Below, in pieces: positions 86 through 191 of a stretch of DNA of 272 bases. The translations under genes were made by a program, and so were the position numbers. The first letter of the stretch is position 1. Every line of letters starts with the position of its first letter. A model generated the notes under the pieces. That model was not told the origin of the DNA. It worked only from the letters and a program-made list of their open reading frames with translations, and ran no database searches. Source of the DNA: Escherichia coli. Its GTDB lineage: Bacteria; Pseudomonadota; Gammaproteobacteria; Enterobacterales; Enterobacteriaceae. The DNA lies in assembly GCF_003334355.1 (NCBI RefSeq), contig NZ_QOWP01000118.1; one strand, given 5' to 3'.

Positions 86-98
86 AATGGTGACAAAT
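86..98. other. Head-to-head inter-PU linker (13 bp, aatggtgacaaat), between the Y head and the next Z2 head; recurs at 179-191 as agtggtggcaaat
   Basis: Conserved spacer joining consecutive units; the unit-2 copy carries two A to G transitions (180, 186). Positions 1-5 (caaat) are the 3' end of a preceding linker, which implies the array continues upstream of the window. Confidence 0.6.
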
Positions 99-127
99 GC
101 CTGATGCGCTACGCTTATCAGGCCTAC
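99..127 (+). repeat. REP palindromic unit, Z2-type (copy 2)
   Basis: Identical to 6-34. Confidence 0.85.
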
Positions 128-144
128 AGATTCTCGCGCCACTC

Positions 145-178
145 GTAGGCCGGATAAGGCGTCCACGCCGCATCCGGC
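145..178 (-). repeat. REP palindromic unit, Y-type (copy 2, loop variant)
   Basis: Same as 52-85 except T to C at 163 (loop ttca becomes tcca). Both stems intact. Confidence 0.88.
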
Positions 179-191
179 AGTGGTGGCAAAT

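Follow-up and report, generated by a model that had tools for sequence, protein, structure and literature searches.

Identity and architecture of the array

The stretch of DNA analysed here (hereafter the window, 272 nt) is, as we hold with good confidence and jointly with the block-duplication account given below, an internal piece of a BIME-2 (REP) array in the intergenic spacer between yahG and yahI of E. coli. The yahG-yahI spacer of E. coli H1827/12 (CP013031) contains the whole window at 100% identity, and in K-12 the same units lie at yahG-yahI under the annotated ORF yahH. TRF (score 509) and a repeat finder (family D1/D2) recovered a 93-bp period with 2.9 copies in the window, each unit running from a Z2 REP through an S linker of 17 nt and a Y REP to an l linker of 13 nt. 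The features, in window positions, are as follows.

1-93, plus strand: repeat unit 1, type A (T42, T49, T70, A87, A93), from the 93-bp period; equal to unit 3 of the six in H1827/12
94-186, plus strand: repeat unit 2, type B (C135, C142, C163, G180, G186), from base-by-base comparison
187-272, plus strand: repeat unit 3, type A, truncated behind the Y REP by the end of the window; 100% identical to 1-86
6-34, with copies at 99-127 and 192-220, plus strand: Z2 palindromic unit in inverted (iREP) orientation, from the fold and inverted repeats
6-30 and 31-34, plus strand: stem-loop and CTAC tail of Z2, without variation inside the window
35-51, with copies at 128-144 (containing 135 and 142) and 221-237, plus strand: S linker, tail-to-tail, 17 nt; 10/17 positions variable in 54 units
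52-85, with copies at 145-178 (loop variant at 163) and 238-271, plus strand: Y palindromic unit in REP orientation, from the fold, inverted repeats and an Rfam naRNA4 match
52-55 and 56-85, plus strand: GTAG and stem-loop of Y, the latter with a 2x2 internal mismatch in the fold
86-98, with a second copy at 179-191 (containing 180 and 186), plus strand: l linker, head-to-head, 13 nt; 7/13 positions variable in 54 units
55-124 (78.0 bits) and 148-217 (72.4 bits), plus strand: matches to Rfam RF02564 (naRNA4), gathering score 59.5
1-272, minus strand: sense strand of yahF(fdrA)-yahG-yahI-yahJ, with yahH/hypothetical ORFs crossing the array (annotation)

In the fold, the Z2 hairpin carries bulges and pairs 6-13 with 23-30 and 15-16 with 20-21, while the Y stem pairs 56-62 with 79-85 and 65-68 with 73-76, the 2x2 mismatch lying between the two helices. 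Y and Z2 palindromic units thus alternate in opposite orientations, each with a GTAG or CTAC foot and a stem mismatch or bulge, and they are joined tail-to-tail by the short S linker and head-to-head by an l-type linker. The copies are tandem and extragenic, and their number depends on the strain. This is the BIME-2 architecture of Gilson/Bachellier, for which Ton-Hoang et al. 2012 (PMC3333891) give a summary, where inverse Y and Z2 REPs with these feet, mismatches and linkers recur in tandem, REPs being conserved, linkers highly variable and copy number different between strains (PMC3333891). The assignment to BIME-2 in an earlier, sequence-only reading of the window therefore holds, and we find nothing of substance that sets the array apart from that class, other than that it is one particular locus (yahG-yahI, yahH) with a rare six-unit allele.

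The closest named relative is REP325/naRNA4 (RF02564), a 12-hairpin array between yjdM and yjdN that shares the architecture described here. Its S spacer AAATTCCCGCACCCTCC is homologous to the S linker of our array, AGATTCTYGCGCCAYTC, and its l linker AACGGTGCCGACT to our l linker, AATGGTGACAAAT; both arrays sit between tandem genes. REP325 differs in unit length, 100 bp as opposed to 93 bp, and in its hairpin, which is of a longer Z type where ours is Z2. The covariance-model scores for RF02564 exceed the gathering threshold on the plus strand, and the minus-strand matches stay below the gathering score of 59.5. As the flanking genes lie on the minus strand of the window, the operon-sense RNA is the reverse complement of the window, and the strand in the sense of the naRNA4 model is antisense to yahG/yahI; a discrete HU-binding transcript of the naRNA4 kind would have to come from that antisense strand. 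We note that the RF02564 model in effect detects the generic Y-l-Z unit of BIME arrays, so automatic annotation would call sRNA genes here and probably at other BIME arrays too.

Protein annotation over the array calls for similar caution. The 93 bp of a unit equal 31 codons and the unit is free of stops, so several reading frames remain open across the array; in the source genome (L002, positions 2302-2957) ORFs of 60-203 aa span it on both strands. The length of YahH or of the corresponding hypothetical protein tracks unit number between strains, suggesting that these ORFs are probably spurious.

Variation in stems, loops and linkers across strains

A contig scan for BIME-2 linkers returned at least 120 loci, mostly from Citrobacter, Pseudocitrobacter and E. 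albertii, and in most of them the S and l linkers were unrelated in sequence. Among the loci listed, recognisably homologous linkers were present only at REP325, in a Pseudocitrobacter array and at the orthologous locus. Since linkers are unrelated at most loci, a strain survey of the yahG-yahI locus was used in place of a genome-wide alignment. The survey comprises 54 units from 17 alleles picked from BLAST rankings, and its statistics should be considered under the constraints of a small sample in which kinship is ignored. Variable columns, counted without a complex replacement seen in an O111 strain, were distributed as follows.

Stems: 9/42 positions variable
Unpaired REP positions (loops, bulges, internal loop, GTAG/CTAC): 4/21 positions variable
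Linkers: 17/30 positions variable

Fisher tests on these 54 units and 17 alleles separate the REPs from the linkers (13/63 vs 17/30 variable, p=0.0008). Stem positions were as conserved as unpaired positions of the REPs and vice versa (9/42 vs 4/21, p=1.0), and stems compared with all non-stem positions gave p=0.048. We show that the contrast is one between REP module and linker, rather than between paired and unpaired bases. The sequence-only reading had attributed the pattern to constraint on hairpin structure, which is too specific given the equal conservation of the unpaired REP positions. Its observation that base-paired positions are unchanged is correct within the window but does not extend to other strains, where nine stem positions vary. 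Two compensatory pairs, found in two strains in the terminal Y, account for four of these nine sites and turn GGCG...CGCC into GACA...TGTC.

A REP-versus-linker pattern fits recognition of the whole module, because binding by TnpA-REP requires GTAG together with the stem mismatch, with cleavage at C|T (PMC3333891), and because the Y REPs of BIME-2 are the units preferred and cleaved by gyrase (PMC6379681). A recent preprint found, across 697 palindromic units genome-wide, that variation is concentrated at unpaired bases (bioRxiv 10.64898/2026.03.23.713779); our small local sample of 17 alleles shows no excess variation at unpaired REP bases, which neither bears out nor counters that finding.

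Several alleles depart from the common pattern. In muskdeer13-4 and GABEEC132 the terminal Y reads AAGACATTCATGTCGC in place of AAGGCGTTCACGCCGC, a difference of two compensatory pairs (G-C to A-T) in the upper stem, and the same alleles also carry T12A (stem) and T17C (loop) in Z2 as well as a distinct l linker, TGTGGTGGCCAAT. The single-unit allele of O111:H8 strain 7-58 72A has CAGTATCTAC, not CAGGCCTAC, as the 3' arm of Z2, a multi-base replacement that abolishes the foot of the hairpin. The yahI-yahG spacer of AST20 is without a BIME and holds instead ~60 nt of unrelated filler with a CCCCTCTCCCC...GGGAGAAGGG inverted repeat, possibly an 'empty site' or an alternative-element allele. In LTE950, the spacer equals that of K-12 in total length, and pieces of the flanks (GGGTGATGGGGTTATGACC..., ...GACGCCGTAACGTTCG) lie between the units of its scrambled array; an engineered strain, a rearrangement and an assembly error are three alternatives for this allele. 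At the orthologous locus of E. albertii NBRC 107761 (L011, ~4000-4300), a duplication of ~140 bp comprises the 3' end of yahG and one Z2-S-Y unit, with its junction at an l-like AATGGTGCCAAT. Two metagenomic contigs are likely cases of binning contamination: L057, binned as a Bacteroidales MAG, contains an enterobacterial Z2-S-Y junction, and L074, binned as an 'uncultured Pseudocitrobacter' MAG, has two units in a yahI-yahG spacer resembling that of E. coli.

The five differences of the middle unit

Base-by-base comparison showed that unit 2 differs from unit 1 at exactly five sites, 135 (T to C), 142 (T to C), 163 (T to C), 180 (A to G) and 186 (A to G), confirming both the count and the observation that all are transitions. 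The comparison had also been extended to unit 3. All five differences stand against unit 1, but those at 180 and 186 could be read against unit 1 only, because unit 3 breaks off at 272 (offset 86 of the unit) and its counterparts of these two sites are absent from the window; the source genome (L002) has A and A at both. Units 1 and 3 are identical over their 86 common bp. Sites 135 and 142 fall in the S linker, 163 in the Y loop and 180 and 186 in the l linker, and the fold places none of the five in the canonical Z2 or Y stems. It thus agrees with the earlier description of stems that are the same in all window copies, with changes confined to the linkers and one loop. The probability that all five would lie outside the 42 stem positions of 93 is 0.045, i.e., marginal.

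Unit B is a real and common allele of the second unit in the K-12-type array, a-B-A-A, where a denotes the first unit. A B-specific segment of 73 nt (window 128-200) was found at 100% identity, and in each case under yahH, in ~1,300-1,480 of the 5,426 complete E. coli genomes. Sequencing or assembly error, named in the sequence-only reading as what would undo the unit-2 differences, is thus not the source of a unit that occurs exactly in more than 1,000 genomes.

Across the survey, the five sites do not behave as five separate characters. C42 (window 135) occurs in 30 of the 54 units and C49 (window 142) in 22, and both are shared, in most strains, by the first unit (a) and also by many other units and alleles. 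C70, G87 and G93 (window 163, 180 and 186), on the other hand, travel together as a separate block. We also found units, which we refer to as B' (C, C, T, A, A at the five sites), that combine the S linker of B with the loop and l linker of A, in rl0044, 2018-06-4CC and JNEC-KY204. The array of rl0044 (a-B'-A) is the product expected from an unequal B x A crossover within positions 50-69. Segregation of variant sites as blocks between units and strains, for which the sequence-only reading had suggested looking, is indeed seen, in the B' unit and in three-unit alleles resembling B x A crossover products. Overall, the five differences probably represent fewer than five independent events, and the haplotypes suggest that unequal crossover or conversion operates at the yahG-yahI locus in general.

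The loop variant of B is also not unique to the yahG-yahI array, as the lone Y REP in the artJ-artM spacer of strain 4/0 has the same GTCCAC loop; this Y REP (an exact match to window 145-179) is found in most E. coli genomes.

The occurrence of five transitions out of five is unremarkable given a locus-wide ratio of transitions to transversions of 25:6 (54 units, 17 alleles), from which the probability of 5/5 is 0.27-0.34. This is in line with the caution, already voiced in the sequence-only reading, that the bias might reflect small numbers. The alternative offered there, deamination-type mutation, is disfavoured at 163 and 180 by the direction of change. Position 70 is T in 50 of 54 units and position 87 is A in 28 of 37, and the same bases occur in E. 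albertii and REP325. As C163 and G180 are rare and T or A is present in nearly all homologues, the B states at these two sites appear to be derived by AT>GC changes, opposite to cytosine deamination, which we reject as their source. At 135 and 142, both states are common among units.

Unit order and unit number

The six-unit array of H1827/12 and the four-unit array of K-12 compare as follows.

H1827/12: spacer of 629 nt, unit order a-B-A-B-A-A
K-12: spacer of 443 nt, unit order a-B-A-A

The two spacers differ by exactly 186 nt, i.e., one B-A block, and there are zero substitutions between corresponding units. The flanks differ at 7 of 2315 and 53 of 2506 positions, indicating that H1827/12 and K-12 are not close relatives overall. 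The entire window was found at 100% only in H1827/12 and in a fragment within a garbled region of the XL1-Blue record, and the order A-then-B was exact in only 2 of 20,395 records, namely these two.

Unit numbers were taken from locus spans in an evenly spaced sample of the ranking. Six units were present in one genome, four units (a-B-A-A) in about a quarter of the sampled rows and one unit in ~40% of them; five, three and two units occupied few rows each, and arrays of zero units were also seen. The locus thus carries a variable-number tandem repeat of 0-6 units across strains. Within this range, the six-unit allele reads as a rare derivative of the common four-unit allele, the direction from four to six units (vs six to four) being inferred from allele frequency.

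We propose that one 186-bp B-A block was duplicated on an a-B-A-A array, giving a-B-A-B-A-A. A recent block duplication would account for the identity of units 1 and 3 without selection, constraint or conversion. The junctions a-to-B and A-to-A share a stretch of 85 nt (unit positions 50-93 followed by positions 1-41 of the next unit), which, judging from the sequences, was most likely the homology used for a two-unit misalignment. More generally, unequal exchange or slippage between units would add, remove and recombine whole units, while point changes would persist mainly in the two linkers and the REP modules would stay near the genome-wide consensus.

We consider it improbable that the six-unit array is an assembly copy-number error and that the true array is a-B-A-A. 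The six-unit order does occur in two records only, and the copy in XL1-Blue, a K-12 derivative, lies among pseudogene fragments and is flanked by inverted ISAs1-like sequence, resembling a mis-assembly. In H1827/12, however, the array is clean, yahI and yahG on either side of it are intact and the flanks are normal. Its 560 bp are well inside long-read length, and more than 1,000 genomes give independent confirmation of the sequence of unit B. The XL1-Blue fragment itself (L001 2180-3000; NZ_CP081007.1, ~4.65 Mb) reads Y-B-A-B-A-Z2-S-GTAG between the inverted ISAs1-like copies, with both junctions at GTAG and with pseudogene fragments, tRNAs and RHS pieces as surroundings. It looks like a mis-assembly, an IS-related event being possible; the record has another origin and is rearranged relative to MG1655 in the region where the native yahH was sought.

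The sequence-only reading had explained the A-B-A pattern by an old alternating array or by homogenisation through gene conversion. Conversion-like shuffling of variant sites in blocks is evident at the locus, and conversion can yield identical non-adjacent units. Yet no other sampled allele alternates, different unit orders being found in O157, JNEC-KY204, ET350, GPEC1446 and the muskdeer strain, and exact alternation is limited to the 2 of 20,395 records. A single duplication is simpler, since one 186-bp block with zero substitutions is all that separates the six-unit array from the very common a-B-A-A. We therefore regard both an old alternation of A and B and a conversion that homogenised units 1 and 3 as very unlikely, and the exact B-A duplication takes their place.

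A putative helix between the two linkers

A further reading, to which we assign an equally slight chance, invokes a helix between positions 44-50, the 3' half of the S linker, and positions 86-92 of the l linker; it would enclose the Y REP and leave G43 bulged. The differences at 142/180 and 135/186 would then be compensatory pairs, each T-A to C-G, and four of the five changes would lie at paired, selected positions. Minimum-free-energy folds (RNAfold) of the A and B units do form this helix on both strands, and the B' intermediate (C49 with A87) folds worse, at -25.7 vs -29.4 and -30.7 kcal/mol, with G-U wobbles on the mRNA-sense strand. Complementarity between the motifs GCRCC (S) and GGTGC (l) extends to REP325 and the Pseudocitrobacter array. 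Against this, linkers shuffled around a fixed Y REP folded nearly equally well (p = 0.03-0.4 for six unit types on both strands). Among 21 distinct units, the combination 49:87 was C.A in 7, C-G in 3, T-A in 7 and T.G in 4 (Fisher p=1), and all four combinations occurred at 42:93 (Fisher p=0.62). The structure-pair count showed no excess over shuffles, 283 of 500 of which reached the observed value, and only 85.7% of cells in the S-l helix were paired. REP325 units are mismatched at 48:88 and 50:86, the AACAGTG variant disrupts 47:89, and on neither strand do all observed haplotypes fit. Neither covariation nor stability of an S-l helix was thus above chance in the six unit types and 21 distinct units, and we reject the third helix on the linker shuffling, the haplotype table, the Fisher tests, the pair count and the REP325 comparison. 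In the Pseudocitrobacter array (L067), S linkers with GCGCC go with l linkers with AATGGTG, and those with GCACC with AATTGTG; this resembles covariation but involves sites that are not pairing partners, i.e., linkage only.

Fainter still is the prospect that the two linkers make up an imperfect inverted repeat on either side of the Y REP, with coordinated double changes coming from template switching during replication (quasi-palindrome mutagenesis) or from selection on a helix of RNA or ssDNA. Starting from a C.A/C.A intermediate (a, B'), correction of the S arm would give type A (T42, T49) and correction of the l arm type B (G87, G93); if true, two templated or compensated events, and not free drift, would underlie four of the five differences.

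Likely function and implications

The block duplication that we favour is what would be expected of a variable-number tandem repeat. Unequal sister exchange or replication slippage alters unit number at bacterial VNTR loci, and the yahG-yahI array shares with them whole-unit gains and losses, crossover hybrid units, and identical non-adjacent units after block duplication. It differs from them in that the units would themselves be substrates of a dedicated nuclease-transposase, TnpA-REP/RAYT (PMC3333891). The sequence requirements of TnpA-REP, GTAG and the stem mismatch, are present in the array, and as this protein cuts and rejoins BIMEs in vitro (PMC3333891), a protein-mediated route of amplification is also possible. 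The T142C change of unit B adds a CT dinucleotide to the S linker; were this a new site of cleavage, the variant would bear on amplification.

What can be said of the function of the array draws on better-studied relatives. REP325 serves its tandem gene pair as a terminator that depends in part on Rho and as a stabiliser of the upstream mRNA, and gives a ladder of hairpin-ended transcripts (bioRxiv 10.64898/2026.03.23.713779), while the role of naRNA4 in chromosome compaction is disputed (bioRxiv 10.64898/2026.03.23.713779). By analogy, the yahG-yahI array is probably a partial terminator in the yahG-yahI transcript that modulates read-through into yahI, and probably also a 3' stabiliser of the upstream yahG mRNA. 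It may likewise be a target of gyrase with a preference for the Y units, as known at other BIME-2 loci (PMC6379681). For termination and mRNA stabilisation, unit number would outweigh the differences between A and B.

Taken together, the sequence facts first reported for the window are right, and the biology behind them is already known and is ordinary BIME-2 behaviour, of little importance beyond annotation hygiene: yahH and other hypothetical ORFs, as well as Rfam naRNA4 matches, over such arrays are by-products of the repeat. The case illustrates how REP modules stay conserved while linkers drift and unit number changes via block duplication. Where identical non-adjacent units are met in such arrays, a recent block duplication should be the first reading, before selection or conversion. 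Finally, if REP arrays are terminator or stabiliser dials, as REP325 is, the alleles of 0-6 units at yahG-yahI would offer a natural allelic series for dose dependence.
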